Below, in pieces: positions 712 to 62,500 of a DNA stretch of 64,000 nucleotides (its first letter is position 1; every line of letters starts with the position of its first letter). Under the pieces are notes generated by a model that worked only from the letters and a program-made list of their open reading frames with translations, was not told the origin of the DNA and searched no databases. The stretch lies in the NCBI GenBank assembly GCA_965287045.1, contig OZ336882.1:26784001-26848000 (forward strand). Reading direction: 5' to 3'. A program made the translations under genes and the position numbers. This DNA is from Carcharhinus amblyrhynchos. Its lineage: Eukaryota.

Positions 712-978
<267 letters not shown>

Positions 979-1142
979 TTATTGACATAGCAGCTTTGAC
1001 ATAGTAATGAAAAGACCTTGGAGGTTTATCTAGAGGTTTATTTAGAGGTCACAGAGATAGGGGGATGATGCCAAAGAGGGATTGATATTAAGGGTGAGAA
1101 TTTTAAAATGAGATGTTGCTTTGTAAAGCAACAATCTCACAA

Positions 1143-1430
1143 TATTATTAGTGTCACAAGTAGGCTTACATTAACACTACAATAAAGTTACTGTGAAAAT
1201 CCTCTAGTCGCCACACTCTGGTCCCTGTTTGGGTACACCGAGGGAGAATTTAGCATGGCCAATGCACCTAACCAGCTCATCTTTCGAACGTGGGAGGAAA
1301 CCAGAGCACCCGGAGGAAACCCAAGCAAACACAGGGAGAACGTGCAGACAGTGACCTAAGGGGGGAATCGAATCCGGGTCCCCGGTGTTGTGAAGCAGCA
1401 GTGCTGACCAGTGTGCCACCGTGCCACCCA
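1143..1430 (-). mobile_element. tRNA-derived V-SINE (HE1-type head/core, tail type A)
   Basis: A-box and B-box (ggttcgattcc-like) head, V-domain core gggtttcctccgggtgctctggtttcctccca, tail ...gtaagcctacttgtgacactaataa; several copies in window. Confidence 0.8.
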
Positions 1431-2219
1431 AGATCACAACTGAAATATTAACAAGTTAAAAGAGATTTGGGATCACCTTAGTTGTGCGTCCAATATTTTT
1501 TGACCTCTGCTCTTTTTAGGTTTGAGCCAATGCAATAATTGAAGGTGGATTTCGGGCAGTTACAAGCACCAGCGGTACAAGTTGATTGGCACACGCAGCT
1601 GAAGCTGAAACGTGCTGGGTTAATGATGATGTCAATAAATATTAATTTGCCTCTTTACACTGTTGGTACTTATCAATCTAGTAAAATCTAGTATGGCAGC
1701 AGGGTGACCCAGTTTCTCTGTTGGGAAGAGCATGAGATCCAATTCTGGACCTCCCTTGATTGAAATTGGAGAATTTTGGGGCTTTGTATGATAAAGCACT
1801 GGCACACAGTATCAACAGGTACACCGCAATGCGTTGCTCTTCCTGAGAATCCAGCCTATACTATCCTGAATGACACAATTGCCCATCAGATAAGTTTCAT
1901 ACATTAGTTTTTAAAGTGCAGTGTGGTTCTGAAAGTGCATCATTTACATTTTATTAAACTAAGATATTGTTATCGAATTGCAGCATCTTTTTACTCTCAT
2001 GCATTACATGCCATTCCCAAGAGATGTGTAACAATGAAGTGAAATTATTTAGAGGAAATATCTCCAATGTAAATCGATTAAGATTCAGATGTTCTAGCTG
2101 ATTATTGTATAGTTAAGCAAAAACTCTTCTGTTTCGCTGAGTTCAAACTAGGTTGGGTTTTGATCTGTTGATCTCTTTAGGCACTGAAAACACTATTTTG
2201 TTGTCCATTACTACAATTT

Positions 2220-2868
2220 GGTCAGGACTTTACTGCCTCGGGAGGCAGGGAAGGAGATGTTGGGGGCCTGGTAAAATCATAGGCATCAGGGATGGCATAA
2301 GCAGATGTTAAAATGTGCCAATTCCAAGGAAAGGGGATGCCAATTTATACCATTAAATGCACAATTAAGACAATTTCAGAGTTTTGTTGGCATTTTCATA
2401 ATTGGAGCAGGGGAGGTGGGGCAGTCTCCCCCCCTGCTGTGTAGGGAGGTCACCAGATAAATGGGAGTTGCCTCTTTGTTGCAATATCTCGTGGAGATTG
2501 TTTATGTGGAACAAAGAAGGGGCCACAGGAAGGGGAAATAGTACCCGCTGCACCAGTGACCTCCCCGCAATGGTTTCCCTTCTGACCCTTAGCCCTGCGA
2601 CTGTTCAAGATTCTTTGCAGTTGCCCACCTTAGGCCCAAGGCTTACATTCCTCAGCAGTAGTCACCTCTGCTGGTGGTATTGCTGAGGTTTCAGAGCTTC
2701 TGCCTTGTGATTGGGCCAGCAGCATCAGAAGCCTGCCCACAGGTGGCCATTTCAGAGACTGGCAGTGGTAAAATTGCCAAGTGGGTTCCACTACTGGCAA
2801 GTGTGGGTTCAGAACCCCCATTTTACTCCAACATCAGGGTCCTGATTTACCTTGTAGAATTCAGTCCT
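2220..2868. mobile_element. Probable degenerate non-autonomous DNA transposon (Harbinger/MITE-like)
   Basis: GC-richer block bounded by imperfect inverted ends ggtcaggactttac ... gtagaattcagtcc, similar to other GGC..AATTTT-ended elements in the window. Confidence 0.35.
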
Positions 2869-3011
2869 ATGTTTCAATTTGGCACTGAGATAGTTTGCAA
2901 AGTTAGCTGCTTTTAAGATTTAATTAATATTTGGTGAGAGTTCATTATGCATGTGGCCTTGCAGATGATACTCCTATAGGTGCCTATTTAGGTTTTTTTT
3001 AATGGTTACGC

Positions 3012-3355
3012 TTTTTCATTTGTTCATGGGATGTGGACACTGCTGGCTGGGCCAGCGTTTGTTGCCCTTGAACTGAGGACATTTAAGGGTTAACTACATT
3101 GCTGTGGATCTGGAATCACATATAAACTAGGCAAGAACAGCAGATTTCCTCCCTAAAGGATATTAATGAACTTAATGGGCTTTTATGAGAATCGACAATT
3201 GTTTCACAGTCTTCATTAGAATTTTAACTCCAGATTTTTATTGAATTCAAATTTCGCTATCTGCCGTCATGGGATTTGAACCCGTGTCTCCGGAGCATTA
3301 CCTTTGGTCTGTAGATTACTAGTCCAGTGACAATACTACTACCGCCACTGCCTCC
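3012..3355 (-). mobile_element. tRNA-derived SINE, family B
   Basis: Head with gggttcaaatccc B-box, core ...ttcactaatgtcctttagggaaggaaatctg, tail ...gctggcccagccagc..cacatcccatgaa. Other copies at about 3975-4230, 15018-15550, 28405-28560, 30048-30410, 33838-34050, 36910-37250, 41690-42025, 52676-52915. Confidence 0.75.
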
Positions 3356-3666
3356 GCTGTCCTTCTAGATAATGGCTCACTTCTTCCTTTTAGCTGGTGG
3401 TTCAGTGGGCGTATGTCCTTTTAGATAATGGCAATGACCTAACTATATGGGCAACTTATAACAGGGAACTTCTACTGCCAAATGCTTACACTCTTAAATT
3501 TCTGTTGTTGATTCTGCATGTACATTATTATTAAAATGCTGAGTATATCAATAAACAGTGTTCATTGTGACACAAATATGATCATTAATTTGCAATTCAT
3601 ATCTTTGATATATTTCTATTATAAGACTAATTGCTGAAACAAGTTTGCCAACAGTTCATGCCATTA

Positions 3667-3924
<258 letters not shown>

Positions 3925-4439
3925 TCATAATAATATAGCATTTCTCATAGAAGGTAGCACACACTGCATCTTTATCTTATTCATTCATGGGGTGTGGCCA
4001 GCACTTATTGCCCATTCCTGAGGACAATTAAGAGTTAACCGCATTGCTGTGACTCTGGGATCAAATGTAGGCCAGCCCAGGTTAGGATGACAAATTTCTT
4101 TCCCTAAAAGACATTAGTGAACCAGATGGGTTTTTACGACAATTGATAATAGTTTAATCGTCATAATTCGACTTTTAATTCCAGATTCTTAATGAATTCA
4201 AATTTCACCATCTGCCATGGTGGGGTTGCTCAAGATATTCTTCTTGTTCAGTTCTCTGCCTGAAGCAGGTCCTTGGCCATTATTTGTTGAGTTGCAACAA
4301 AAGGCCCTGAATCTAGCCCAGCCGGAATAGGGATCAAACCCTGCACTGTTGGCACTAATAGGATCCACGTGCTATCTAAGCAACTGAGGTAACTGGCCCC
4401 TCATGAGAGACAAAACAGATATTAATTATTAAACCCCTT

Positions 4440-4930
4440 AATTGATTGCACTAGAGAAAGTGCAGAGGAGATTCACTAGGATGTTGCTTGGGCTAGAGTG
4501 TTTCAGCTATGAAGAGAGGCTGGTAGCTCTGGAGGCTGTTCTCCTCAGAGCAGAGAAGGCTGAAGGAGGTGCCTGGTTGAGCTGTCTAACATTATAAGGG
4601 ATGTAGATAGGATGGGACTTTTCCCCTTAATAGGTGTGTCAATAACCAAGAGGCATAGATTTAAGGTAATGAGCAGGAAATTTGGAAGGAAGTTAAGGAA
4701 AAATCTTTTCACCCAGAGGATGATGGGAATCTGGAACTCACTGCATGAAAGGGTGGTAGAGGTGGGAATCTTCACTGCATTAAGGAGCATATAGATGAAT
4801 AATTAAAACAACACAGCATATAAAGCTGCATACCAAGTGCTGGAAATTGTATTAGATTCGATAGGTGCTTGTCGGCCAGCACACACACGATGGGCTGAAG
4901 GGCCTCATTCTGTGCTGTGAAACTCTGTGA
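4440..4930 (+). mobile_element. CR1 LINE 3' fragment (degenerate)
   Basis: ORF2 C-terminal remnant LFPL...TKRHRFKV...RKNLFTQRMMGIWNSL followed by gggctgaagggcc tail. Confidence 0.85.
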
Positions 4931-5221
4931 CACTACAAAGGGACTCTGACTGAACGAGTTGCAAATGGTCATTAAACCTTCCTTCCTCAATGTTGCAAAG
5001 TTCTTTTATTTATTTTCTAACTCAGCCAATAAAGTTCAAAGAAGAAGTTTAACTTTTTGGATTAATTGTAACATATTATCTGATAAAATTACGATGCATA
5101 AATATGTTGTATGTAATGCTCTCTTATGCTGAAGTGGGTTAAGACCTTTAATGCTGCTTTCTGATATGCAACTGAAAAGTCAAGCATGGGTGAATTAAAA
5201 ATGACCTTTCAAATTTGGTTT

Positions 5222-6246
5222 TGTGAAGAAATATAGTTTATTTTCAATATTTTAGAGTTTATTGTGCTATTCTCTGAAGTAGGTTTGTTTGTCTGAGTGT
5301 GTGTCTATGTGTTTAATTAAACAGAAGGCAGTTGGGTTGCAAGGTTCAGAACATCAAAGGATTGTAGGTGTGCAAGACTTGCATTTGAATTAAATATAGC
5401 CAAGTTGTATTTTCTACAAGTAAATAAGGCATGGGTAGAAATTTGTATCAGGAGATAAAGAAGGTTTGCTGTGTCAGTTGCCAAATTTCAAGAGGAAGTA
5501 AAAAGGGGTTTACAACTTGGAAAGCATCATAAATAAATAAAGTAAGGTTATTAAATTTTATTTTGCCTGAAAGTGGGGGTAGTATAGGAGGACCATAAAA
5601 CATTTTTATATTCTGGGAAAGGTGAGTTTCAAAGAGGGCTAAGGACTATGAAATAAAAATGAAAGAGAAAAACAAAATAAGGAGGTCGAGAACTGCTTTG
5701 GAAGTGACCATGTAAAATGTCCTGGAGCGCTGCTCTGTGCAGGAAAAAGTTGTAGAGAAAATGAGCAGCCTTCCAGCTAACCAAGAAAAATTCTCTTTTT
5801 TGCTGAAAGCAGTGTTTTGTTTTAAAGTTTCTTAAATTTCCACAGCCGAGTGGGAGATGAGAAACTTAGAGACATCCCTTCCCTACAGGAATGCTAGTTT
5901 TGCCTTGTGGTCATTTTACTGAAATTTTTAAAGTTAAGCATAAGGGATTATTGCCTAAAGAGGTGTTTATTTTGAGTCCAACCCAGTAGATTTTCAGCAG
6001 AATGTTCTATAAGGCTAATTTTACCTTGTTAATGTAATCTTGTGTCTTCAAGTTTTCTTTTGTTAATAAATGGTTCAATTTAATATTTTAAATCCTTAAA
6101 AGCATTATTGGAACTTGTGGCTTCTGACTTCAGCATATGTATCTTCTCATGGTCAACATACAAAAAGGAAATAGATGTGATAAGCTTACCAAGTTTCTGT
6201 TTGAGATTTGGTTTGTGAGGCAATTGCTACCTGCTGGATCATAACA
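5222..6246 (+). mobile_element. Candidate solo LTR (Gypsy/ERV-like)
   Basis: Starts TGTGA, ends ATAACA, flanked by 4-bp direct repeat gttt (5218-5221 and 6247-6250), AATAAA near 6065. Confidence 0.55.
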
Positions 6247-6544
6247 GTTTCTAGTGTAACAATTAGGGAACTTCAAATAAAACTATTGGGTATTAATTTA
6301 ACCATCTAGACTAGAAACTGATGGAATTTGACTGAAGTTTTTCACAGCTTTCCCAATTAAAATTGTGCAATATTTTCAGTGGGTGGTTAATCAAATGTTG
6401 TCAGGATGGTAACAATTGGTTAAAATTATCCCCAGGTGTCCAAATTGTTGGGCCTTGCTCTTAAATATGTTTCAAAATAAGAACCAGTTTTCTGTCGGAA
6501 CCAAGACAGATTATCACATAACATTATATACCATGTACCATGGA

Positions 6545-7030
6545 CACTTGGCCCAAGCAAATACCTGGACTAAGTTGGTTGTCTGATCAGGATAGTTTAG
6601 ACAGGTTGGACATGTTTCCACTAGAGTTGAGAAGAATGAGAGGTGACTTCATTGAAGTTTATAAGATCCCAAATGGTCTTGACAAGGTGAATGTGGCAAG
6701 GAAGTTTCCTCTTTCGTGGGTTAGTCCAAAACTAGAGGTCACTGTTTTAAAATTAAGAGTTGCCGTTCTAGGACCAAGATTAGGAGAACTTTGTCCTCTC
6801 AGAGGGTTGTGTGACTTTGGAACTTCCTGCCTCAGAAGGTGGTGGAGGCAGGGTCAGTGAATATTTTTCAGCAGAGGTCGACAGATTATTGTTCGGCAAG
6901 GGAATCAAAAGTTATCAAGAGTAGATGGGAATGTGGAACTTGTTATACAAACAGATCAGCCATGATCTTGTGGAACAGTGGAGCAGGCTTGAGGGGCTGA
7001 ATGGCCCATCTCTGCTCAGATTTGATGCAT
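6545..7030 (+). mobile_element. CR1 LINE 3' fragment
   Basis: LDRLDMFPLELRRMRGDFIEVYKI motif and CR1-type 3' UTR gatcagccatgatc...gaggggctgaatggcc. Confidence 0.85.
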
Positions 7031-8051
7031 TTGTAGTTCATGCTGATTTCATTCCCACTTGAGTCTCTTCTCATTTTTCCTTATCTAAACCTATTAGCAT
7101 AACCCCCTGTTCTTTTCTTCTTCATACCCTTAATGCATATCAGGGCCTTCCTTAAATATATTCATGCTACTTGTCTCAACTACTCCCTGTGGAAGTATTC
7201 ATTCTTACTTATTGAACTGGAAATTAGTCAAGATAAAGAAGCTTTGCCCTGGGTGCAAACTAAATTGAAGACTCTTGGGGCATTAGCAAAGATGTGGAAT
7301 CCAGATAATAGCTGATTAATTTACATTTCATGCAATAAGCCAGTAGCAAAAGCCAATTTGGGAAGCATTTACAATAATAACTTACATTTATATAGCATCT
7401 TTCATGTAATGAAATGTCTCAAGATGCTGTATAAAGGAACATTACAAAACAGAATTGGTCCCCAACTCCACCCCCAATTTAGAGGTTGTGGGATAGCCCA
7501 GCATGATCCCGCAAGCTGTTTCGCAGCAATTTAATGCCGGGAGCAGAATGCCCCAATTTTCTCTGGAATCGGTCCTACCTTAAAGAGCCGTCGGCCAATT
7601 GGATGACCAGCAGCTCGTAGTCTCAGCAGTGCCAGCTCAGGTTGGTGGTCACTGCTGGGACTGCATGCTGAGCAGCCCAGGTAATTCAGGGGTCAGAGTC
7701 TCAGCGAGGGGGAGTGGTAAGGAGCATTGGGGGGAGGGGGCCAGGTTCGAGAAGCTTAGAGGGGTGAATGGTGTTGGGAGGTGGGAGGAGGGTCCTCTGA
7801 TGGAGATGGACCAAGGGGGCTCACAAAGGAGGTGTTCTCCCCCTTGCCCGATACCTGACTGAACAGCTAAAGCTGCCGGGCTTTCTGTGTGGAATGGGAT
7901 ACCCCATTTCCCAATGGCAGGAGAGTCACCCAACTCTTCCTCAACCCCAAACAGGTCAGGGGCAGGTGAGTAGGCAGCAGGAAGAGAATCCACTGGATTT
8001 GATGTATTCCTCATCACAAAACCCACTGACAGGGGAGTGTACGATCAGCCC

Positions 8052-8425
8052 AATGAATGGGATGGATAGGATAGAGGTGGAGAGACTCTTCCCGCTCAGA
8101 AAGGACAGTAGGACTAGGGGGCACAGCCTCAAGATAAAGGGGAGGCGGTTTAGAACAGAGTTGAGGAAGAATTTCTTCACTCAAAGGGTGGTGAATCTCT
8201 GGAATTCTCTGCCCGTTGAAGTGGTGGAGGCTACCTCGCTAAATATTTTTAAGACGCGGGTTGATGGGTTTTTGATAAGAGAGGGGATTAAGGGTTATGG
8301 GGAGAGGGTGGGAATGTGGAACTGAGCCACGACAGATCAGCCATGATCTTATTAAATGGCGGGGCAGGCTCGAAGGGCTAGATGGCCTACTCCTGCTCCT
8401 ATTTCTTATGTACTTATGTTCTTAT
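8052..8425 (+). mobile_element. Young CR1 LINE 3' end
   Basis: MNGMDRIEVERLFPL...FFTQRVVNLWNSLP...GMWN stop, 3' UTR and (ttcttatg)n tail; near-identical to 23091-23496 and 25745-26120. Confidence 0.92.
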
Positions 8426-8531
8426 TCTCTTGATTCCTTCTCTATGAATGGTAAGTTTTGTCTGTACAGTGTTCAAGAAATAATAGTTTTCACTGTATAC
8501 TAATACATGTGACAATAATAAATCAAATCAA
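8426..8531 (+). mobile_element. Rex1/Babar LINE extreme 3' tail
   Basis: Matches the reverse complement of the tail at 23025-23090 (cactgtatactaatacatgtgacaataataaatcaaatcaa). Confidence 0.7.
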
Positions 8532-8719
8532 TTATCTTGCTTTCTATTACATATTTGTTCCATTTCAAGGTATACGAATTATAAATACCAGCAGACTCAA
8601 GTTGCCACAGCAGGTAATCCAGGTGTTTATAAAACTTAACTTGTGATTAGAAAATAATCAGATTACATGTTATGTGGTATTTGAAGATTGTCTATGACTG
8701 TCAGGTAAGACACTTACTA

Positions 8720-8929
<210 letters not shown>

Positions 8930-9192
8930 TCAGAAAAGTACAACACTGCCGATCAATAGAAAGCCCTAAAGCAGTGAGAATTGTCTTACTTGTTGCAGTG
9001 ATTTAATATAAAGAATTGATTACGGTGAGAGAAAACAAGAAGAAAACAATTGCAAATCTCACAGTTTTGTTAAAAATAAGCAAGATGGTGCATGGAGGAT
9101 GTGGGCAAATAGAATATATCTGGAGATATATTTGGCCAACCCAGGACTCATGTTTAAGTTTATTAGTGTCACAAATAGGCTTATATTAACAC

Positions 9193-10770
9193 TTGTGGAG
9201 GCATTGGTGGTGGTCTTTCAGGAATCACTGGAAGCAGGGAAGGTGATGTGCAGATGCCGGCGTTGGACTGGGGGTAAACGCAGTAAGAAATCTCGTAACA
9301 CCAGGTTAACGTAGCAGAGGACCGGAATGTAGCGAATGTAACACCGCTGTTCAAGAAGGGAGGGAAGCAACAAATGGGAAATTATAGGCCAGTTCGCCTG
9401 ACTTCGGTCATTGGCAAGATTTTAGATTCCATTATTAAAGATAACATCGCAGTATACTTGGAAGTGCAAGATAAAATAGGACTGAGCCAGCACCGTTTCA
9501 TCAAGGGCAGGCCATGTCTGACAAATCTGTTAGAGTTCTTTGAGGGGGTAACAAGGAAGTTAAATAAAGGACAACCAATGGACATGATTTCTTTAGATTT
9601 CCAAAAGGCCTTTGACAAGGTGCTGCATAGGAGAGTGTTGAATAAGTAAGTGCCCATGGTGTTAAGGATAAGATCTTGGCATGGATAGAGGTTTGGCTGA
9701 CTGGCAAAGAGTGGGGATAAAGGGGTCTTTTTCAGGATGGCAGCTGGTGACTAGTGTTGTACCTCAGGGGTCAGTGCTGAGACCACAACTTTCCACAATA
9801 TACATTAATAATTTGGAGGAAGGAACTGAAGGCACTGTTGCTAAGTTTGCAGATAATACAAAGGTATGTAGAGGGACAGGTACTTTTGAGGAAGCAGGGG
9901 GGGCTGCAGAAGGACTTGGACAGGTTAGGAGAGTGGGCAAAGTAGTGGCAGATGGAATACAATGCGGAAAAGTGTGAGGTTATGCACTTTGGAAGGGGGA
10001 ATGGAGGCATAGACTATTTTTTTAAATGGGACAATGCTTAGGAAATCAGAAACACAAAGGGACTTGGGAGTTATTGTTCAAGATTCTCTTAAGGTTAATG
10101 TGCAGGTTCAGTCGGCAGTTAGAAAGGCAAATGCAATGTTAGCATTCATGTCAAGAGGGCTAGAATATAAGAGCAGGGATGTACTTCTGAGTCTGTATTA
10201 GGGTCTGGTCAGACCCCATTTGAATATTGTGAGCAGTTTTGGGCCCCGTACTTAAGGAAGGATGTACTGGCCTTGGAAAGGGTCCAGAGGAGTCTCAAAA
10301 GAATGATCCCTGGAATGAAGAGCTTGGCGTATGAGAAACGGTTGAGGACTCTGGGTCTGTACTTGTTAGAGTTTAGAAGGATGGGGGGGGGAGTCTTATT
10401 GAAACTTACAGAATACTGCAATGCCTGGATAGAGTGGATGTGGAGAGGATGTTTCCACTCGCAGGAATAACTAGAACCAGAGGGCACAACCTCAGGCTAA
10501 AGGGACGATCCTTTAAAACAGAGATGAAGAGAAATTTCTTCAGCCAGAGAGTGGTGAATCTGTGGAACTCTTTGCCGCAGAAGGCTGTGGAGGCCAGGTC
10601 ATTGAGTGTCTTTAAGACAGAGATAAATAGGTTCTTGATTAATAAGAGGGTCAGGGGTTATGGGGAAAAGGCAGAAGAATGGGGATGAGAAAAATATCAG
10701 CCATGATTGAATGGCAGAGCAGACTCGATGGGCTGAGTGGCCTAATTTTGCTCCTATGGCTTATGGTTGA
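9193..10770 (+). mobile_element. 5'-truncated CR1 LINE (RT domain to 3' end) inserted in a V-SINE
   Basis: GNYRPVRLTSVIGK, LDFQKAFDKV, VPQGSVL and KFADNTK RT motifs; flanked by aacac repeat (9188-9192, 10771-10775); SINE halves at 9152-9192 and 10771-11034. Confidence 0.92.
9244..9309 (-). mobile_element. Penelope-derived short element (family 1), 3' tail fragment
   Basis: Reverse complement ttaacctggtgttacgagatttcttactgcgtttacccccagtccaacgccggcatctgcacatca matches the tails at 54420-54480 and 59445-59508. Confidence 0.75.
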
Positions 10771-11994
10771 AACACGCAATTAAGTTAATGTGAAAATCCC
10801 CTAATCGCTACACTTTGGTGCCTGTTCAGGTACACTGAGGGACAATTTAGCATGGCCAATGCACTTAACCAGCATGTCTTTCAGACTGTAACAGGAAACT
10901 GGAGCATCCAGATGAAACCCACACAGACCCGGGGAGAATGTGTAAATTCCACACAGACAGTGACCAAAGCGAGGAATCGAACCTGGGTCCCTGGTGCTGT
11001 GAGGCAGCAATGCTAACCACTGTGCCACCGTGCTGCGTCAACCCACCTTGCAGTTATGCAAGCTGTGGTTTTACTTTGGAGCCAAGTGTGGTCGGTGCAG
11101 ACTCAATGGGCCAAATGGCCTCCTCCTGCACTGTAGGGGTTCTATTCTATTCTAAGTGGTGCAAGAAGTATTCAGTTTATCAGCATTTATCTCACATTTT
11201 ATGACTTGTTGATTAATGATGGCTCTGCATGAAAATGGAGATGTCTGACGTGAAGCCCATGCCAATACGTACTTCCTTTTTGCTTGATGTTAGTGTTGAG
11301 GTCATTTAAATGCTGCTATGAAGCTCATTTAACATTTTAGGTACAGAGGTATTTTGGGAAAGAATAATCCCACCAGTTCAGATGCTGATCCTAACCTACC
11401 ATGCCAACCCACAGATTTAGAGTGGTTGCAAAAACAGTGCTCCAGCGCTGCAGTACCTGCTTCAGGGAAGTGAGGGTAGAACAACTGGGACTTAATTACA
11501 TGGCTCTGATCCTATTATTGTGGATGTAGTAACATAGAAAAGTAAATGAGATGTATTCCTAAAATACTTGTACAGCTATAAGGCAAATAAATTAATATTC
11601 CTTACAGCCCTGTGGTTATTTTAAAATAATTGGTTGCTTTGATGCACAGTGACTGAAGAAAGCATAGACAAGGCAGATCTGTGCCAATTAAGAGATGAAT
11701 GATAGCATTAGAGAATAGAACATTCAGCAGGACTTTCAACCTTGTTGGAAGGGGTAAAACAGGCGCTAGCGACTTGGCCATCAGTTTTACATCTCACTTG
11801 ATAACCACCTTCTAAGGATGGCCTGAAACAGATTATATTAGATCAGTCATCCATTATATATCACTCTTCATTTGTAACCCCTTCGACTTGGCTGGGAGTT
11901 AAACTATGGCAAGATATATAATGGACAGCCGATTTCACACTGTCCATTTTGTACTATCAACAAAGGTTTAAATGAATACGTTATGTTCATTTAA

Positions 11995-12738
<744 letters not shown>

Positions 12739-16099: not shown

Positions 16100-16540
16100 T
16101 CAGGATTCTGAAACAACAACAGATAATGCTGGAAAGTCTCAGCAGGTCTGACAGCAACTGTGGGTAGAGAATGGAGCCAAGGTTTTGAGTCTAGATGACC
16201 CTTCATCAGAGCTAACAGCAAAGTGAACCAGCAGAGTTTTATACTATTGGGGTGGGTGGATGGGAGTGGGGTGGAATTGGACAAAGGGAATGCAAATGAC
16301 GATGCAGAAGGCTGAGAAGGTGCCAAGAATATTCGATTCCACACCTGCTCCCCGCCATCCACCTCCCCACCCCAATAGTATAAATCTCTGCTGATTCTCT
16401 TTGCTCTTAGCTCTGATGAAGTTCGTCTAGACAAAAAACGTTGGCTCTATTCTCTCCCCACAGACATTGTCAAACCTGCTGAGATTTTCGACATTTTGTG
16501 TTTTTGTTTCAGGCTCCAGCATCCCCAGTACTTTGCTTTT
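16100..16540. mobile_element. Penelope-derived fold-back element (family 2) with decayed hammerhead motifs
   Basis: Inverted arms about 16100-16215 and 16407-16520; each arm has ctctgatgaag..tc.tctagac..aaaac.tt, a decayed CTGATGA-stem-GAAACGT core. Confidence 0.65.
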
Positions 16541-17980: not shown

Positions 17981-18681
17981 TTGGTTCCTGCAGCAGACTT
18001 GAGTTCTGCCTTATGAATTACACTGGGGACAACTTATGACTTTAATTACTGCTCCCACCATCCATTTGCACCCTGTCTTGCCATTCTTGCACAGTTTATG
18101 GAAGCAAATGAATTCACCAACTTTCACTGCTCCCATGGATTGCTTTGGAAGGAATAGTTAAGCAAAACATCAAAGTACTGCAGTTTGTAAATGAGACCAG
18201 TGACAGCAATCATCACGTCTATTTTCAGACATTTCCAATTTTATAGTGCTAGTCATAAAATCATTGAACATAAAGGTATTTATCCTACAAGCAGGCTGCA
18301 TCAACCAGCATTTAGCTAGCTATCAACATCTGCATAAATCTCTCTTTCATCAACTACACAGATGCTTGAAGGGGACTTTTTCTGGGCAAGATTTTATGCT
18401 TGAAAATCATCATTCGCCTCAGATTAACATCAATGGTGAGACAGGAAACTAAATTCAATAGCAAGTGTTCCAACTGCCAGATTTTCTCATGTCAGTGATT
18501 CCAATTGACTTGCGACCTCAAAAGTGTAATTGTTGGAACATTATCCACTTTTCCCACAACCAATGTGATTTGAATAGAGTGATTTGTAGGGCACCAGGAT
18601 CATTTGAGACTTCAGGACATGGTCGTCCCTACACTTTTGCGAGTCATCCCAGGCCCAGGCGAGAGCCGTGTGCAACAGTGC

Positions 18682-18778
18682 TTTCCATACACCTGACGAA
18701 GGAACAGCGTTTCCGAAAGCTTATGGGTTTACTATCAAATAAAGTGGTTGGACTTTAACTTGGTGTTGTGAGACTTCT
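18682..18778 (+). mobile_element. Penelope-derived short element (family 1) with hammerhead motif at 18690-18725
   Basis: cac CTGACGA a ggaa cagcgt ttcc GAAA gc TT atg, then caaataaagtggttggactttaacttggtgttgtgagacttct; flanked by aacagtgc (18674-18681, 18779-18786). Confidence 0.72.
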
Positions 18779-19499
18779 AACAGTGCGGAGCCAGTGAACT
18801 GGCAATAGTGGCGGCAGAAGAGCTAAAAGCTCCAGGGACAATGCTTGTTTACAGGACAAGGATCCTTTGGGAAGAGGATTTGCATTTCCTTTAATGCCTC
18901 ATGTATTCTTTTCCCTACTCATATTCCTCATTGCTAACTGAAATTCAAGTAGGAGGCTCTCATGAGCAACTGAATGAGGAAACTGCATGATCACGAGGCA
19001 CAGAGAATTCAGGAAAGGACTTGTCCTTTAACAGATCAGTGAGCTGATTGGGCACAATTAATGGAAACCTGAAAAATGACAAATTCCTTTTGCCAGTCAT
19101 CCGGCAAACCTTGATCAGCGCTTGTCCAAATTTTGACAGGGGAGTACCTTTGTCTGGTTAACTAGCACCAATTACTCCACCCATTGAGTCTCTCACATTG
19201 ATCCTTGAAAAGCCTTTTGTTTTTTTAGCATTGCAGATATAGCATGGGTCTTCTCACATTTTCCGATGGAGCAGCCCGAGTGGATTTTCCACCCCAATTT
19301 TTTAAGTCCAGAGAAAGATCAGCCACAAATCAGGGTTGACCTCAGTGTTATAACTAAAATCCTTTCTTGAAAATTATTTATTCTTTACTGAAATTATTTT
19401 AAGTAAAGAATCATGCCTACTTGGATACTCATGGGTATGTCCTGTACAAATTTATGACCATCTAAAAATATGGTTCAGTAAAAATTGAGTTTCTAGATG

Positions 19500-25744: not shown

Positions 25745-26585
25745 AAGAACATAAGAGCATAAGAACATAAGAAATAGGAGCAGGAGTAGGCCATCTAGCC
25801 CTTCGAGCCTGCCCCGCCATTCAATAAGATCATGGCTGATCTGTTGTAGCTCAGTTCCACTTTCCCGCCCTCTCCCCATAACCCTTAATCCCCTCTCTTA
25901 TCAAGAACCCATCAACCCGCTTCTTAAAAATATTTAGCGAGGCAGCCTCCACCACTTCAACGGGCAGAGAATTCCAGAGATTCACCACCCTTTGAGTGAA
26001 GAAGTTCCTCCTCAACTCCGTTCTAAACCGCCTCCCCTTTATCTTGAGGCTGTGCCCCCCAGTCCTACTGTCTTTTTTGAGCGGGAAGAGTCTCTCCACC
26101 TCTATCCTATCCATCCCATTCATCATCTTATACGTCTCAATGAGATCTCCCCTCATTCTTCTAAACTCTAACGAGTACAAGCCTAGTTTATTCAGCCTCT
26201 CCTCATAGCTCAATCCCCTCAACTCCGGTATCAGCCTAGTAAACCTCCTCTGCACTCCCTCCAGGGCCAAAATATCCTTGCGCAGGTGCGGCGCCCAAAA
26301 CTGCACACAGTACTCCAGCTGCGGCCTCACCAATGCCCTATACAGCCGCAGCAAGACCTCCCTACTTTTATATTCAATCCCCCTCGCTATGAAGGCCAGC
26401 ATCCCATTCGCCTTCCTGACCACCTGCTGCACCTGCAAGCTGGGTTTTTGCGACTCATGCACAAGGACCCCGAGGTCCCTCTGCACCGTCGCCTGCTGCA
26501 GTTTTTCGCCACGTAAGTAATAGTCCTTCCTACCATTCTTCCTACCAAAGTGGACCACCTCACACTTGCCAACATTAAATTCCAT
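25745..26585 (-). mobile_element. Young 5'-truncated CR1 LINE with uninterrupted 244-codon ORF2 C-terminus
   Basis: ORF 25851-26585 (MEFNVGKCEVVHFG...[13 protein letters not shown]...FFTQRVVNLWNSLP), CpGs retained, aagaacat tail repeats, possible TSD agtcta (25740-25745, 26589-26594). Confidence 0.95.
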
Positions 26586-26668: not shown

Positions 26669-26806
26669 AAAAGCAAATTACCATGGATGCTGGAAATTGA
26701 AACAAAAACAGAGAGAATGTTGGAATATCTCAGCAGGTCGAACAGTATCTGCCGAGAGAGAATAGATCCAATGTTTCAAGCCTGGGTAACTCTTTGTCAG
26801 GGCTGA
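26669..26806 (-). mobile_element. Penelope-derived short element (family 2)
   Basis: Reverse complement ccctgacaaagagttacccaggcttgaaacattggatc...gacctgctgag...tccagcatcc; decayed hammerhead core. Confidence 0.6.
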
Positions 26807-46364: not shown

Positions 46365-46673
46365 CTAAAATACAGCAGATGTTGAGGTCTGTAATAGAAA
46401 ACAGAAATGTGCTGGGAAAACTCAACATCCGTGGAGAGCGAAAAACAGAACATTTCGAGTCATAGTGAACTTGAAACGTTAACTCTGGTCAAAATTCTCT
46501 CACCTCATCTGCTGTGGGAATTGTAGCGAGCGAGACATAAAATTTGGTGGACCATTCAAAGGTCCGTTGAACTCGGGCGAGAATTTCCAATCTTGGGGTT
46601 TCTCTCTGTTTCTCCCTCCACAGATTCTGCCAGACCTGCTGAGTTTTTCCAGCACTTTTTGTTTTTACTTCAG
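46365..46673. mobile_element. Penelope-derived fold-back element (family 2) interrupted by a MITE-like insert
   Basis: Left arm aaatacagcagatg...catttcgagtc inverted relative to right arm acttgaaacgttaactctg...cagacctgctgagtttttccagc. Confidence 0.55.
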
Positions 46674-49743: not shown

Positions 49744-51102
49744 GAGTAATGTCACACTGCCACCAATTACAACAACTCTATAAAAGTGTGAACACTCACG
49801 TGGACAAAACCCTTTAGGGTGCTCGAGGCTCTGAGGGCACAGGGGAGATGCAATTAAATGTAATCCAGGGCCAATGGTTGGAGGGGTTTAGTCTGGGGAT
49901 GGGTCCATTGCAGCCCCCGCCTTCCACTCATTTCTCCTCAAAAGGGTTTGGTGGCTGGCTTGCAGGCAGTGTCTCCCATGTCTTCCCCACTTGGCTTATT
50001 TTCCATTCCGCACTGAGTGAGTGCCCTACCTTTGTGCGATCTTGAAGTTGGGTCAAGGGAGGAATGCATAGGTCATTACTGGTTTCCACTCTGAGCTGCA
50101 ATGCTTTGGTGTGACAACAGATTCCTAGGGCACAGTGGGGAAGTGGGGGGGGGGTCTTCCTTCCTGCTGCATGAAGCCACAAGATCCTCCAACAGGGGGG
50201 AGGATGAATGCAGTGTGTTTTAACCCAAATGGGTTTAGTTGCATGGAAGTGGAAATCCACTTCTCAGGGAGGTTTAACTGTCGAGAATAAGTCTAGGTGA
50301 GCGTGGGAAATGCAGCGGTCTTTGTGAAATTGAACACTTTTTAACTTAGCAAGGTCAAATTGAATCTGGATAATTCATAACGAGTTATGATGAGGCGCAG
50401 CTAATTCCTGATAAGACTGCAATTAGCATGTCAGATACTTTCCAATAGGGCTCTCTCAGGTCACAAGGGCTGTAGAGTTGAACTGCCTTCCATCAGCCAC
50501 AGCCACGCTCACCCAGACTTATTCTCGACAGTTAAACCTCCCTGAGAAGTGGATTTCCACTTCCGTGCAACTAAACCCATTTGGGTTCACACACTGTTGC
50601 CTGAATGTGGGGTTAAAAACACACTGCATTCATCCTCCCCCATGTTGGAGGGTCTTGAGGCTTCATGCAGCAGGAAGGAAGACACCCCCCCCCCCCCCCC
50701 CACCTTCCCCACTGTGTCCTAGGAATCTGTTGTCACACCAAAGCATTGCAGCTCAGAGTGGAAACCAGTAATGACATATGCATTCCTCCCTTGACCCAAC
50801 TTCAAGATCACACAAAGGTCGGGCACTCACTCGGTGCGGAATGGAAAATAAACCAAGTGGGGACGACATGGGAGGCACTGCTTGCAAGCCAGCCACCAAA
50901 TCCTTTTGAGGCAAAATGAGTGGAAGGCGGGGGCCGCAAAGGACCCCTTCCCAGACTAAACCCTTCCAACCATTGGCCCTGAATTACATTTAACTGCATC
51001 TCCCCTGTGCCCTCAGAGCCTTGAGCACCCGATAGGGTTTGTCCACCTGAGTGTTCACAGTTTTATAGAGTTGTTGTAATTGGTGGCGGTGTGACATTAC
51101 TC
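49744..51102. repeat. Long inverted repeat, arms 49744-50306 and 50503-51102
   Basis: gagtaatgtcacactgccaccaattacaacaactc... pairs with ...gagttgttgtaattggtggcggtgtgacattactc; mirror ORFs 49848+/50808- and 49928-/50665+ are near-identical. Confidence 0.95.
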
Positions 51103-53689: not shown

Positions 53690-55810
53690 AGATTGATGGC
53701 ACGGTAATTGGCTGGGTTGGATTTGTCCTGTTATTTGTGGACAGGACATATGTGGGCAATATTTCACATGGTCAGGTAGATGCCAGTACTGTTGTTGTAC
53801 TGGAACAGCTTGGCTAAGGGTATGGCACGTTCCGGACCACACGGTATCAGTATGAGTGCTGCAATGTTGTCAGGGCTCATAGTCTTTGCAGCATCCAGTG
53901 TTTTCAGTCATTTTTTGATGTCACGGGGAATGAATCGAACAGGTATCTGTGACACTGGGGACCTCAGGATGCCAAGATGGATCATCCACTCTGCACATCT
54001 GGCTCAAGGTGGCTGCAAATGATTCAGCCTTGACTTTTCTACTGATGTGCTGCACTCCCTCATCAATGATGATAGGGATAATTGCAAAGGCCTCCTCCTC
54101 CTCCTCCAGTGAGTTGTTTAATTGTCTACTGCCATAGACAACTGAATGTGACAGGACTGCAGAGCTGTGATCTGATCTGTTGGCTGAGAGATTGCTGAGC
54201 TCTGTCTATTACCTGCTGCGTATGCAGCCTCCAATGTTTTACATGAAAGTAGTCCTGTGTCGTAGCTTTACCATGTTGACGCTTCATTTTTAGGTCTGCC
54301 TGCTGTTGCCCTGCTGCACTCTTCATTTAGTAAGAAGTCTGACAACACCAGGTTTAAGTCCAACCGATTTATTTGATAGTAAACTCACAAGCTATTAAAT
54401 AAATTGGTTGGACTTAAACCTGGTGTTGTCAGACGTCTTACTGTGTTTACCCCAGTCCAACGCTGGCATCTCCACATCATGACTACTATCAGCACTTTTC
54501 ATTTAGCCTGATTTGACCTTAGGATTGGTGTTAATTGGGATTTGGGGGATTTGCCGGGCCATGAGGTTACAGATTGTGGTTGAGGATGATTCTGCTGCTG
54601 CTGGTGGTCCATAGTGCCTCATGGATGTCCGGTTTTGAGTTTCTAAATCTGTTTGATCCCATTTGCATGGTGGTAGTGCCACACAACACGATGGAGGGCA
54701 CCCTCAATGTGAAGATGGGACTTTGTCTCTACAAAGACTGTGTCCTGGTCACACCTATCAACATGGACAGATGCATCTGCAACAGGTAGATTGGTGAAGG
54801 GGAGGCCAAGTAGGATTTTCCCCATTGTAGGTTCCCTCACTGCATACCAGACTAGGAGCTATGTCCTTTAGGCCAGTTTGGTCAGTAGTGGCGCTACCCA
54901 GCCACACTTTGTGATGGACATTGAAATCCCCGAGCCAGAGTACATTCTGTGCTTTAGACACCCTCAGTGCTTCCCCCAAGTGGTGTTCAACTTGGACGAG
55001 TGCTGGTTTATTTGTAGAAAGGGGATGGTAGCTGGTAATCAGCAGGAGGGTTCATCGTCCATGTTTGACCTAATGCCATGAGACTTCATGCAGTCCAGAG
55101 TTGATGTTAAGAACACCCAGGGCAAATTCTTCCCACTGCTGTTTAACACCACACTGCCACCTCTGCTGATTTAATTTGATTTGATTTATCATTGTCACAT
55201 GTATTAGATTACAGTGAAAAGTATTGTTTCTTGCTCGCTATACAAAGCATAGTGTTCATCGAGGAGGAAATGAGAGAGTGCGGAATGTAGCATTACAGTC
55301 ATAGCTAGGATGCAGAGAAAGATCAACTTAATGTGAGGTAGGTCTATTCAAAAGTCTGATGACAGCAGGGAAGAAGCTCTTCTTGAGTCGATTGGTACAT
55401 GACCTCAGACTTTTGTATCTTTTTCCCGAAGGAAAATGGTGGAAGAGAGAACATCTGGAGTGCGTGGGGTCCTTAATTATGCTGGCTGCTTTGCTGAGGC
55501 GGGGGGAAGTGTAGACAGACTCAATGGATGGGAGGCTGGTTTGCGTGATGGATTGGGCTACATTCATGATCTTTTGCAGTTTCTTGTGCTCTTGGGCAGA
55601 GCAGGAGCTATACTGGACCTGTCCTATCGGCCGGACAGAACATACCCAGGAATGGTGATGGTGGTGTGTCAATGGGAGGGGTGGTTTGACTAGTCTGTGG
55701 GGCAGCTCTTCCAAATTTTGCACAAGCCCCAGATGTTAGTAAGGAGGAAGTTACAAGGTTGACAGCGCTGGATGTGCTGTTGTTTCTTTCCGGTGCCCAG
55801 GTCGATGCCG
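53690..55810 (-). mobile_element. Old CR1-clade LINE (family C), endonuclease region, with nested inserts
   Basis: AQNVLWLGDFNVHH APE-endonuclease motif; homologous to 32660-33835; interrupted by 54331-54491 and the Rex1 copy at 55168-55615. Confidence 0.8.
54331..54491 (+). mobile_element. Penelope-derived fold-back mini-element (family 1), hammerhead core absent
   Basis: About 50-bp inverted arms (54330-54379, 54392-54441) plus tail ccccagtccaacgctggcatctccacatcatg; TSD gcactYttcatttag (54316-54330, 54492-54506). Confidence 0.85.
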
Positions 55811-58459: not shown

Positions 58460-58892
58460 CCAGAAGGAGAAATTGATTGAATAAACTAGGGTTGTTTTCA
58501 CTGGAAAGACGGGGGCTGAGGGAAGACCTGATAGAGATCTATTAAATTATGAGGGGTATAGACAGGGTGGACAATCAAAGGCTTTCTCCCAGGGTGGAAG
58601 TGTCAATTATAAGGGAGCACAGGTTCAAGGTGCGAGGGGGAAAGTTTAAGGGAGATGCACGGGGGAAGTTTTTCATGCAGAGAATAGTGGGTGCCTCGAA
58701 TGCACTGCCAGAGGAGGTGGTGGAAGCAGGCATATTCGCAACATTTAAGATGCATCTGGATAGATACACGAATAGGGAGGGAATAGAGGGATATGAAATG
58801 AGTAACGGCAGGTTTTTTTCAGTTTAGCTAGGGCATCATGATCAGCATGGGCTTGGAGGCCTGAAAGGCCTGTTCCTGTGCTGTACATTTCT
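58460..58892 (+). mobile_element. CR1 LINE 3' fragment
   Basis: MRGIDRVD...HRFKVRGGKFKGD.RGKFFMQRIV...NALPEEVVEA; tail shared with 21745-21945. Confidence 0.87.
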
Positions 58893-59020
58893 CATTGACT
58901 CACTCGCCTGATGAAGGAGCAGTGTTCCGAAAGCTCGTGCTAAAGCTGTTGGACTTTAACCTGGCATTGTGAGACTTCTTACTGTTCCTATCCCAGTCCA
59001 ACACTGGCATCTCTACAACA
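58893..59020 (+). mobile_element. Penelope-derived short element (family 1) inserted in the CR1 tail
   Basis: TSD tgtacRtttct (58882-58892, 59021-59031); hammerhead motif followed by gttggactttaacctggc...ccagtccaacactggcatctc tail. Confidence 0.82.
58905..58939 (+). ncRNA. Minimal type I hammerhead ribozyme motif
   Basis: CGC-CUGAUGA-A-GGAGC agu GUUCC-GAAA-GC-UC-GUG: conserved core, stem II, palindromic AGCU helix III, UH site, 3-bp stem I. Confidence 0.72.
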
Positions 59021-59295
59021 TGTACGTTTCTTTGTTCTTTATCTTTATTGAAATGTTGGAATATCAGGAGCAGGGGGTTGGAGGACGGAGGGGGTGTTGC
59101 AGAATGAAGCCAATGGATGTCCAGGATTTTAAGATTGGCTATGGAGAGACAGAGGGACAAGTATCAGGCACCCTGATGTGACCTGCGCTGTATCACACAT
59201 GTCTTCATTCACAACAACGCTAAAAGGAGTGGGGAATGACAATGATGGGACACATTCCAAAACAGCGATGGGAGAAAATGCTGAAATTTAGATCG

Positions 59296-59508
59296 TAAAA
59301 AGTCTGACAACACCAGGTTTTAGTCCAACCTATTTATTTGATAATATTCTCACTAGCTTTCGAGGGGACAGCCTCTTCGTCAGGTGAATGGAGAGTTCCC
59401 CTCGAAAGCTAGTGAGAATATTATCAAATAAATAGGTTGGACTAAAACCTGGTGTTGTCAGACTTTTTACTGTGTTTACACCAGTCCAACGCCGGCATAC
59501 CCACATCA
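59296..59508 (+). mobile_element. Young Penelope-derived fold-back mini-element (family 1)
   Basis: Perfect 74-bp inverted repeat (59295-59368, 59397-59470), family tail, perfect 14-bp TSD tgaaatttagatcg (59282-59295, 59509-59522). Confidence 0.9.
59351..59386 (-). ncRNA. Minimal type I hammerhead ribozyme motif
   Basis: Reverse complement CAC-CUGACGA-A-GAGG cugucc CCUC-GAAA-GC-UA-GUG: intact core, 4-bp stem II, AGCU palindrome, CAC/GUG stem I. Confidence 0.75.
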
Positions 59509-62500
59509 TGAAATTTAGATCGACAGGAGTTTCCTAAAGCACAGTTAACAGTCTGGATTTGATTTCGTCACAAAGTAAAGGGTTTTTTTTTAAATTCACT
59601 GGCTTCAGCAACAAACTATTATTGTGTAAAATCCTTGCTACTTTCTTGCAGTAGCTCAAAGGCAGGAATGGTGGGAGGATTTTTTAAATAGTACAATTAT
59701 CTCTGAGATGAAAAGAACATTAAATGATACATAAAAATAGCCATATAAAAGGAAAATGAGACATACAGCACTTGCTGATGTATGCAGAATTTATAATAAA
59801 ACAGAGGACAAACAGATCACCGATGATTGCGGAGTTAATCATTATTGCTCATGACGATGATTCTCTGAACATGTGAAGCAGAGGCAGAGATGGGGCGAGG
59901 GGAAGAAGCAAGTTTGTTTGATTGTTTTAGGTGAGAATTGGCAGAGACACGATGGCTGGGATTTTATGACCTTGCTTGGGCGAGACTCGTAGAATCCCAT
60001 CCGAGGCCAACAGAGAATTCCATCCTGCGAGCCTCGTCCGCCCCAATTCTGGGGTGGGCCTGCCAGTAAAATAGCTTCCTTTTGTACTGTAAGCTTCAAT
60101 GGCTCTTACTTATTCTGGTGAGGTGACAACAACAATGGCAAGAATTGACATTTACATGGTGCCGTTAGCATAGAAAACGTCCCATGGCAGGTTACAGAGG
60201 CATGATCCGAGAAGATGGACACTAAACCAAAGCAGAAGGTTATTAGAAGTGGTGACAAAGTTGGTTTATAAAGTGTCCTAAAGAAGGAAAAGAAAGTGAT
60301 AGTGACGAGGCAGACGAGTTTTCCTTTCATATTTCAAATGGTGTGAGTTGGTGGTGGGGGGGTTGGGGGGGGGTGGTGGGTGGGGGGGCACGCATTGACT
60401 GAAAACATGGCCATCAAAAAGGCAGCAAAAATGAGGATGCGCAAGTAAGTCAAACCTGGAGGAAGAGAGAGTTTGCAATGGAGGGTTCTAGGGATAGATT
60501 AAGTAACAGTGACAGGGAAGAGTGAGACCGTGAAGAAATTTAAGTGCAGTAATGATATTTTTAGATCGGAAATTGGACTATCTTTGGACTGTGGGAGGAA
60601 ACTGGAGCACCCGGAAGAAACCCACGCAGACATGGGGAGAACATGCAAAGTCCTCGCAGACCTGGACCCGAGCCGGGTATTGAACCTGGGTTCCAGCGGT
60701 GCTAACCACTGTGCTGCCCTAAATAAATACAGAATTTTACTGTTGATGCACCTCCAGCTTTGTCCTTTTCTGGAGTTCAGCAATCCCGGGCAGCACAGTA
60801 GCATAGTGATTAGCACTGCTGCTTCACAGCTCCAGGGACCTGGGTTCGATTCCCAGCTCGGGTCACTGTCTGTGTGGAGTTTGCACATTCTCCTTGTGTC
60901 TGCATGGGTTTCCTCTGGGTGCACTGGTTTCCTCCCACAGTCCAAAGATGTGCAGTTAGATTGATTGGCTATGCTAAAATTGCCCCTTAGTGTCCTAGGA
61001 TGGTTAGGTTAGGCGGATTAGCGGGTAAAATATGTAGGGATATGGGGCCTGGGTGGGATTGTGGTCGGTGCAGACTTGATGGGCCGAAGGGCCTCTTTCT
61101 GCACTGTAGGGTTCAATGAAATAATGGAGACCTGCACTTGGTTTGCCATAGAAGATGGACAGCAAACACTTGCATGACCTCTAGGTTATGGAGGATGACA
61201 AATGGGAGAGCAGACAGAGGAGCAATCTGAGCATTCAAGGAATAATTATGCATTGCTTGAACTTTGTTTTCCTCAGTTTAGCTGAGTCGCTCAAACAGAT
61301 TTATATATTACGAAAATGAGTGCACTTCATCGCTTTCCAAACTTGGAATAAACACAACAGAATGTTCTGTCAAGTCAGGCTCTGGTTGCCAACTTGCAAA
61401 GGCTACACTCAAATTGTGCAGGCAGTTGAGCAAACAAAGTCACAATGTTCAATCAACCCAGAGAATCAAAGACATGAGCTGTGAGGAAAGTTTTAAAAGG
61501 CACCTGAGTTATCTTACAGAAGTGATTGAGGCAGACAAAGAAATAACAATGGTAAACGTGTATGTCTGCCTGTTGACTGAAATATATTCAGCAACCAGGC
61601 CCAACCAATCACTCTCTCCTCGTAATCCATCCATATCCCGGACCTTTCTCTGTACTGCCTTCAATGTCGGAATATTTTTCCTGAGAAACCATTTACAGTA
61701 TTCCATGTACAGTCTAACTAGTGCTTATATTTTTATGCTCCATTCCCTTTGAAATGAAGGCCAACTTTCCATTTCCCTTCCATTTTATATACATTGCATC
61801 AACTGGATTCTCTTATCTATCCTGTTCACTATCACCTCAAAGAATTCTAATAAAATTGTCAAGCATGATTTCCCCTTCATGATGTCAGGCTGACTCTGTG
61901 TTTATTTGACACATCTGTCAGTGTCTGGCTAAATTGTTATCAGAGGATCCTACAGTGCAGAAGGAGGCCATATGGCCCATCGGTCTGCACCAAACACAAT
62001 CCCATCCAGACCCCATCCCCATAACCCAATGTATTTAACCTAGGTAGTCACCCGCCACGAGGGAGCAATTTATCATGGCTAATCCACCTAACCTGCATAT
62101 CTTTGGACTGTGGGAAGAAACTGGAGCACCTGGAGGAAACCCACGCAGACATGGGGAGAACATGCAAATTCCACGCAGACATGGACCCAAGCTGGGAGTT
62201 GACCCTGGGTTCCAGTGGTGCTAACCACTGTGCCACCCTAAATAAATACAGAATTTTAATGTTGATGCACCTCCAACTTTGTCCTTTTCTGGAGTTCAGC
62301 AATCCTGTCCAGCTGAGCAGAGCAAGGACAGTATTATGTCCTCTTTCCGCCAAACTCTTCACAGCTGTTTCTGTGACCATTGTCTTCTTGTGCTCAGGTG
62401 TAAGGTCGGCATCCCGAACTCCTGAAATGGACCCACTGAAGTGAGAATATCTGATAGATATAGACATTTGATAGGTGGAGGAATAGGGGACTATGGGGAG

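Follow-up and report, generated by a model that had tools for sequence, protein, structure and literature searches.

The window analysed here is a 64,000-nucleotide stretch of the shark Carcharhinus amblyrhynchos (contig OZ336882.1, positions 26,784,001 to 26,848,000, forward strand). At 59282-59522 it carries a short fold-back insertion, which holds a hammerhead ribozyme motif and lies in a probable intron of a gene resembling FSTL4. The insert proper spans 59296-59508 (213 nt) and has target site duplications (TSDs) of 14 bp on either side, at 59282-59295 and 59509-59522, identical at 14/14 positions. Among 5000 random site pairs set equally far apart, flanking repeats extended to 11 nt at most, and 0/5000 reached 12 nt or more. 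Two inverted arms, at 59295-59368 and 59397-59470, are complementary at 74/74 positions around a 28-nt spacer, and the hairpin that they form has a fold z of −21.8, with equal stability in 0/200 shuffles. An initial annotation, made from the letters of the stretch, had reported the size of the insertion, the perfect TSD and the perfect arms, and had taken the insert for a non-coding product of retrotransposition; the present analysis bears this out. A coding function of the repeat was rejected; no reading frame is conserved through it.

The insert consists of two 5′-truncated copies of a single repeat end that meet head to head. The inverted piece (59296-59396, minus strand, 101 nt) contains the whole hammerhead, stops at a point that we call end site A, and has no tail. 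The forward piece (59397-59508, plus strand, 112 nt) runs from within loop II of the hammerhead to a second point, end site B. Beyond the left arm (59295-59368, minus strand), 28 nt exclusive to the inverted piece form the loop (59369-59396, minus strand), and this loop contains the 5′ half of the hammerhead. The 3′ half is also present at the start of the forward piece (59397-59414, plus strand), where its complement provides the lock on the minus-strand transcript described below. The arms are not terminal: the forward piece alone carries an extension of 38 nt (59471-59508, plus strand), which matches the “tail” of Penelope elements. The final G of the left TSD is common to the end of the inverted piece, and the initial TG of the right TSD to the element's continuation, ATG; because these letters occur in the element's own sequence, the boundaries of the insert are ambiguous by 1-2 nt.

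On the minus strand, positions 59386-59351 read CAC-CUGACGA-A-GAGG-CUGUCC-CCUC-GAAA-GC-UA-GUG, which is a complete minimal type I hammerhead motif of 36 nt and confirms, at the sequence level, the full core announced previously. Its parts are helix I (CAC/GUG, which can be lengthened to 4 bp), CUGACGA followed by an extra A, helix II (GAGG/CCUC), GAAA, and the palindromic AGCU of helix III. The CUGANGA and GAAA core, a UH cleavage site and the closure of helix I are all present. Hammerhead numbering would place the cut after the CUA triplet (59354-59356, minus strand), between 59354 and 59353. A minimal-hammerhead descriptor combining helix I, CUGANGA, helix II, GAAA, the palindromic helix III core and UH found two sites in the window (59351-59386, minus strand, and 58905-58939, plus strand), where 300 dinucleotide shuffles gave 0.007 on average (one match in 2/300); since the descriptor was written after the motif had been seen, this is a favourable control. 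The motif shows the features listed for the minimal hammerheads of Penelope pseudo-long terminal repeats (pLTRs) in the sections available of PMC4209133. In an unconstrained co-fold of two motifs, the helix III dimer was not the lowest-energy form.

Relatives of the insert were sought within the window by blastn and with a profile built from the copies. The family amounts to five insertions made of seven pieces, that is, four siblings besides 59282-59522, one of them 260 bp distant, which the initial annotation had missed. The sibling at 58882-59031 (plus strand) is an older direct copy with a full hammerhead (58905-58939), a tail, an internal deletion and a candidate TSD of 11 bp (1 mismatch). 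The one at 54316-54506 is a second head-to-head fold-back, with a 161-nt insert, a 15-bp TSD (1 mismatch) and 51-nt arms (3 mismatches), which lacks the CUGANGA core. At 18672-18787 (plus strand) lies a direct copy without tail, in whose hammerhead (18690-18725) the inner pair of helix I is broken, and at 9244-9312 (minus strand) a short 3′ fragment without hammerhead that ends at site B; no TSD was found around these last two. Thus TSDs, of 14, 15 and 11 bp, accompany 3/5 insertions, and their AT content is 60-73%, a weak excess over the 58% of the window. The 3′ ends of the seven pieces fall into two clusters approximately 38 nt apart, three being at site A or within about 5 nt of it, and four at site B or as far as 12 nt past it. 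In both fold-backs the tail is on the forward piece only, and the three other insertions have no inverted arm. The forward piece of the 54-kb fold-back overruns site B and continues for 12 nt as ATG-ACT-ACT-ATC, possibly the start of an open reading frame (ORF), although this is unconfirmed. A pattern scan of prokaryotic genomes for stray host contigs returned 0 hits, and a phage collection gave no match.

Conservation of CUGANGA and GAAA across copies had been proposed earlier as a check. In the three hammerhead-bearing copies, the core is invariant, N7 and H17 excepted, and the extra A after A9, the G10.1-C11.1 pair and the palindromic AGCU of helix III are present in 3/3. In helix II, 3/4 pairs are altered on both sides and yet still paired. 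In the parent lineages the hammerhead was probably under selection for its structure; here it would be cargo inherited with the terminal repeat.

The copies also bear on how the hairpin was made. The initial annotation saw in it a mini-element, that is, a propagating non-autonomous fold-back whose 213-bp unit would move as such. The perfect arms and TSD agree with this, as do the variants that the two arms share and that are absent from other copies; however, a single source RNA for both arms also predicts shared private variants, and this junction is found in only 1/5 family insertions. The 54-kb fold-back is truncated at different points on both arms, so that its breakpoints are its own, and it lacks the core; most likely, therefore, the hairpin arises afresh at each insertion, and we hold a propagating mini-element to be quite improbable. 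It is less probable still, to the point of being hardly credible, that the insert was not retrotransposed, being instead a DNA element resembling a miniature inverted-repeat transposable element (MITE), a microRNA precursor or an artefact of assembly, the hammerhead-like string having arisen by chance. The long hairpin could suggest it, and the best Rfam matches are indeed plant microRNA models on this hairpin, but they stay far below cut-offs (62.9 versus 200 bits), and the microRNA precursor was rejected. A MITE or fold-back DNA transposon was rejected because the arms are not terminal, given the 38-nt tail on one side, and because the junction differs between the two fold-backs. The flanking TSD argues against a fold-back of the reads, and the 14-bp length of the TSD, the direct single-arm copies and the recurrence of the motif with compensatory changes argue against any origin of this kind.

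The architecture and motif class support the assignment of the insert to a Penelope-type terminal repeat, as had been claimed before. This filing rests on those two features because no Penelope ORF linked to the repeat was found in the window frames scanned or by protein search. Penelope-like insertions are reported to comprise an inverted 5′-truncated copy, a tail of 30-40 bp, in most cases at one end, and a TSD (10.1101/2021.04.23.441226; PMC3846280; PMC8969392). The same head-to-head inverted truncated copy is described in the available parts of Arkhipova et al. 2013 (PMC3846280) and Craig et al. 2021 (10.1101/2021.04.23.441226), in which the tail is 31 bp for Pen2a and 30-40 bp generally, versus 38 nt here, and the TSD 8-10 bp, versus 14 bp here. 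Unlike the insertions published there, both copies are here truncated within the terminal repeat, which leaves only the repeat. Compared with the minimal pLTR hammerheads of Penelope elements (Cervera and de la Pena 2014, PMC4209133), those of Schistosoma have a helix II of 7-8 bp versus 4 bp in our motif, the host is here a shark, and no ORF link was found; fragments of this kind are counted by thousands in many animal genomes (PMC4209133). The ultraconserved intronic hammerheads of amniotes, for instance in RECK (PMC6155905), are likewise type I motifs on the sense strand of an intron; whereas these are conserved single-locus motifs with tertiary contacts in that account, ours is minimal, belongs to a repeat copy and bears no sign of locus conservation. 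Penelope does not appear in the accessible main text of the catshark genome paper (PMC11979771). Altogether, 59282-59522 is probably a dead-on-arrival, doubly 5′-truncated insertion that came from a shark Penelope-like element, or else from a non-autonomous derivative mobilised by that element's protein.

The parent could instead be a non-coding non-LTR retrozyme that borrows a Penelope protein, retrozymes being short units arranged in tandem, bearing a type I hammerhead and expressed as circular RNA. This overlaps with the explanation just given, from which it departs in the template only; the insertion would be inert in either case. Animal non-LTR retrozymes (Cervera and de la Pena 2020, PMC7229834; Li et al. 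2026, 10.64898/2026.07.22.740005, both as far as their accessible text goes) are similarly non-coding, carry a type I hammerhead, are related to pLTRs and have a TSD of more than 4 bp. They were reported in the one chondrichthyan sampled, with a mean consensus of 363 bp, and are derived from Penelope pLTRs in Xenopus (10.64898/2026.07.22.740005); that no ORF was found here also agrees with such a parent. Retrozymes are defined, however, by head-to-tail units with a hammerhead in each (PMC7229834; 10.64898/2026.07.22.740005), whereas our insert is a head-to-head, single-motif fragment, and tandem units occur in 0/5 of the family insertions in the window. Moreover, descriptions of Penelope elements proper include the one-sided tail and the inverted arrangement, and the unconfirmed ORF start of the 54-kb copy would not fit. 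We regard a retrozyme parent as unlikely, though a serious competitor.

Under the preferred reading, a truncated Penelope-like insertion, the structure can be read as a succession of steps. The element's endonuclease would nick the two strands of an AT-rich target at a distance of 12-14 nt, judging from the TSD. Each 3′ end would then prime reverse transcription on uncleaved element RNA through a microhomology of 1-2 nt, the first at end site A and the second at end site B, 38 nt further downstream; these are the end points observed. Both cDNAs would stop early, after approximately 101 and 112 nt, and would be joined head to head, the arrangement present in the insert. In the anole, the Penelope protein cuts the target on both strands and extends each of them, favours AT-rich DNA and, working mainly on uncleaved RNA, initiates reverse transcription at two internal sites bounding the tail (PMC11167929, in the sections available). 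In our family, 5/7 pieces span the cleavage site and 0/7 start at it, which agrees with a mainly uncleaved template, and the ends of the TSDs share 1-2 nt with the element ends. The Anolis element Poseidon PAc (Frangieh et al. 2024, PMC11167929) thus has in common with ours the two end points bounding the tail, the AT-rich target and templates that span the hammerhead cut site. The PAc ORF, however, begins inside the hammerhead, priming occurring 111-118 nt into it, whereas no frame is conserved through our repeat.

As a tentative proposal, which we put at somewhat under even chances, both nicked strands might prime on one and the same uncleaved RNA at the two sites bounding the tail, the upstream-primed polymerase running ahead. 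Priming of this sort would explain the inversion, the one-sided tail and the TSD in a single step; if it is true, the tail-less inverted piece should nearly always reach further 5′, and the arms should be identical at birth. The tail-less piece extends further 5′ in 2/2 of the fold-backs (by 28 and approximately 14 nt). The formation of Penelope inversions is described as undefined in the literature, as far as its accessible text goes, and a literature search on Penelope twin priming and inverted copies returned nothing on this mechanism by title or abstract opening. A stem of 8 bp, GTTGGACT with AGTCCAAC (59436-59492, and in siblings), connects the repeat body with the tail and has end site A inside it. 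This stem belongs to the lowest-energy fold in 2/3 of the copies folded, and could be the signal for the two start sites.

Several results weigh against the interpretation developed so far. A Pfam scan of stop-to-stop window frames of at least 45 aa found no GIY-YIG or Penelope-specific domain in the 450 longest of the 579 frames. For a 42-aa frame running through the 54-kb copy, a word-indexed protein search yielded 0/6 candidates at E ≤ 10, and an exhaustive search yielded three matches (P0124, P0125, P0126), none of them a Penelope ORF. P0124 and P0125 were rejected as unrelated tandem-repeat translations with summed weak matches (35-37% identity). P0126, a contig translation at 77% identity, has the same order of hammerhead, body and tail and diverges at site B, which favours the preferred reading; the translation is spurious, its source being another copy of the family, and contains no Pfam domain. 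The descriptor finds the motif, but among the 11 Rfam matches to the element at E ≤ 10 there is no hammerhead family, and at the gathering score Rfam has 0 matches in the window. Covariation in helix II concerns three hammerheads (n = 3) and is suggestive only, its score being equalled in 31/500 shuffles. As for the mechanism, two fold-back copies are the basis on which priming and joining were deduced. A published alternative is self-priming on an antisense template (PMC3846280, from the part available), and the junction of the 54-kb fold-back, which falls on an AGCT palindrome with an overlap of about 2 nt, fits it. Finally, priming by PAc is given as non-homologous in the available text (PMC11167929), versus a microhomology of 1-2 nt at both TSD ends here.

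Other coding remnants are present in the window. An RVT_1 domain lies at 9299-9974 and an endonuclease domain at 54761-55051; we take these fragments of reverse transcriptase and endonuclease, at 9.3-10 kb and 54.8-55.1 kb, to be long interspersed elements of the CR1/L2 type. A 244-aa frame at 25851-26585 resembles the C-terminus of a reverse transcriptase, without a Pfam match.

The insertion appears to reside in a large intron. Four immunoglobulin-domain exons on the minus strand, within 739-12675, match shark follistatin-like proteins. The nearest one to the element, by its tblastn span at 12496-12675, encodes the first half of immunoglobulin domain 1 of the FSTL4-like gene, and the others lie at approximately 8723-8857, 3670-3837 and 739-891 (all minus strand). 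One exon piece, 45 aa long, matches proteins of Scyliorhinus torazame, S. canicula and Cetorhinus maximus at 100% identity. Because tblastn with ten full-length proteins revealed no exon in 12.7-64 kb, the intron would exceed 51 kb and the element would lie about 46.6 kb from the nearest exon. Among the 120 protein matches listed, 103 are named FSTL4, which makes FSTL4, rather than FSTL5, the likely though tentative identity of the host gene. The closest shark proteins at NCBI are annotated “follistatin-related protein 5-like”, and the closest tetrapod and coelacanth matches to these exons are called FSTL4; the shark FSTL5-like annotation is possibly a mis-naming.

As the host exons are on the minus strand too, the motif is in the sense orientation of the host gene, in agreement with the initial annotation, which added that part of it would be locked in the hairpin, as a built-in off-switch against cleavage of the intron. 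In silico, the hairpin does lock the motif, to an extent of 18 of its 36 nt (59368-59351) and not the 11 named then. The penalty for an active-like fold is 34.2 kcal/mol with the arm, versus 8.0 without it, and the probability of helix II is 6×10−10 versus 0.55. The complementary arm is transcribed ahead of the motif, and the plus-strand half of the hammerhead is locked likewise. Any second arm longer than approximately 56 nt from site A covers the motif, so that locking needs no design: the lock is a by-product of insertion geometry.

There is, moreover, probably nothing to switch off. In the accessible text of PMC4209133, cleavage by a lone minimal hammerhead was undetectable in vitro and dimers were weak; the anole Penelope hammerhead was dependent on the element's protein (PMC11167929), and 8/9 Xenopus retrozyme dimers showed no cleavage (10.64898/2026.07.22.740005). 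Single minimal hammerheads being reported as inactive, no off-switch is needed. Since our motif is single, has no dimer partner and is predicted to be buried in the hairpin, it most likely leaves the host pre-mRNA uncut at all times. One may nevertheless imagine the hairpin as a selected off-switch or a survival filter, sense intronic hammerheads being harmful to the host gene unless locked. Among the three hammerhead copies in the intron, the sole sense one is locked and the two unlocked ones are antisense; in silico the lock holds strongly and forms co-transcriptionally; and Xenopus retrozymes are reported as rarer in introns than in intergenic DNA (10.64898/2026.07.22.740005). This is a sample of three, however, and a fold-back devoid of the core is present 5 kb away. 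Besides the weak activity and the geometry mentioned above, splicing can survive cleavage of an intron (Dye et al. 2006, as cited in PMC4410947). We find such a selected switch hard to believe, and give just as little credit to the idea that intronic copies on the sense strand can persist only if they are locked.

The description of the insertion as young, or recently inserted, has to be weakened to a relative statement. There are 0 differences at the 87-88 paired sites, which bounds divergence at less than 3.4%. With the mutation rate of the epaulette shark, given as 7×10−10 per site per generation (PMC10587355, available part), this bound allows up to approximately 24 million generations, and absolute dating was rejected as the bound is uninformative. 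In addition, the arms of a hairpin may be homogenised, which would blur the age. In relative terms, the 59282-59522 copy is younger than its neighbours, the 54-kb copy having 3/51 differences in the arms and 1/15 in the TSD.

In sum of its features, the insertion is a real, well-preserved and ordinary truncated insertion of Penelope type, and its motif is one that such elements were known to carry. Taken singly, the locus has little weight, five insertions of the same family being present in 64 kb alone; its value is that of an unusually clean record of the insertion mechanism. If this abundance holds genome-wide, shark genomes would supply many short, TSD-flanked fold-backs with which the formation of the inversion and of the tail could be tested by sequence, and orientation-dependent selection on intronic hammerheads would become testable in sharks in the same manner.

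Fold-backs are common in this region, as shown by the second one of the same family, at 54 kb, and by a third from another family. This other, hammerhead-like family has an older head-to-head fold-back at 16108-16525, with arms 83% alike, both bearing a decayed hammerhead-like motif (CUGAUGA-A-helix II, the GAAA being decayed). Further pieces of this family lie at 26685-26804 (minus strand) and 46610-46673 (plus strand). At 60580-60949, an inverted pair of repeat copies, presumably resembling short interspersed elements, is 80% complementary over 115 nt. Finally, 50127-50727 is a MITE-like element of approximately 600 bp, single in the window, with imperfect terminal inverted repeats of 180-220 bp.

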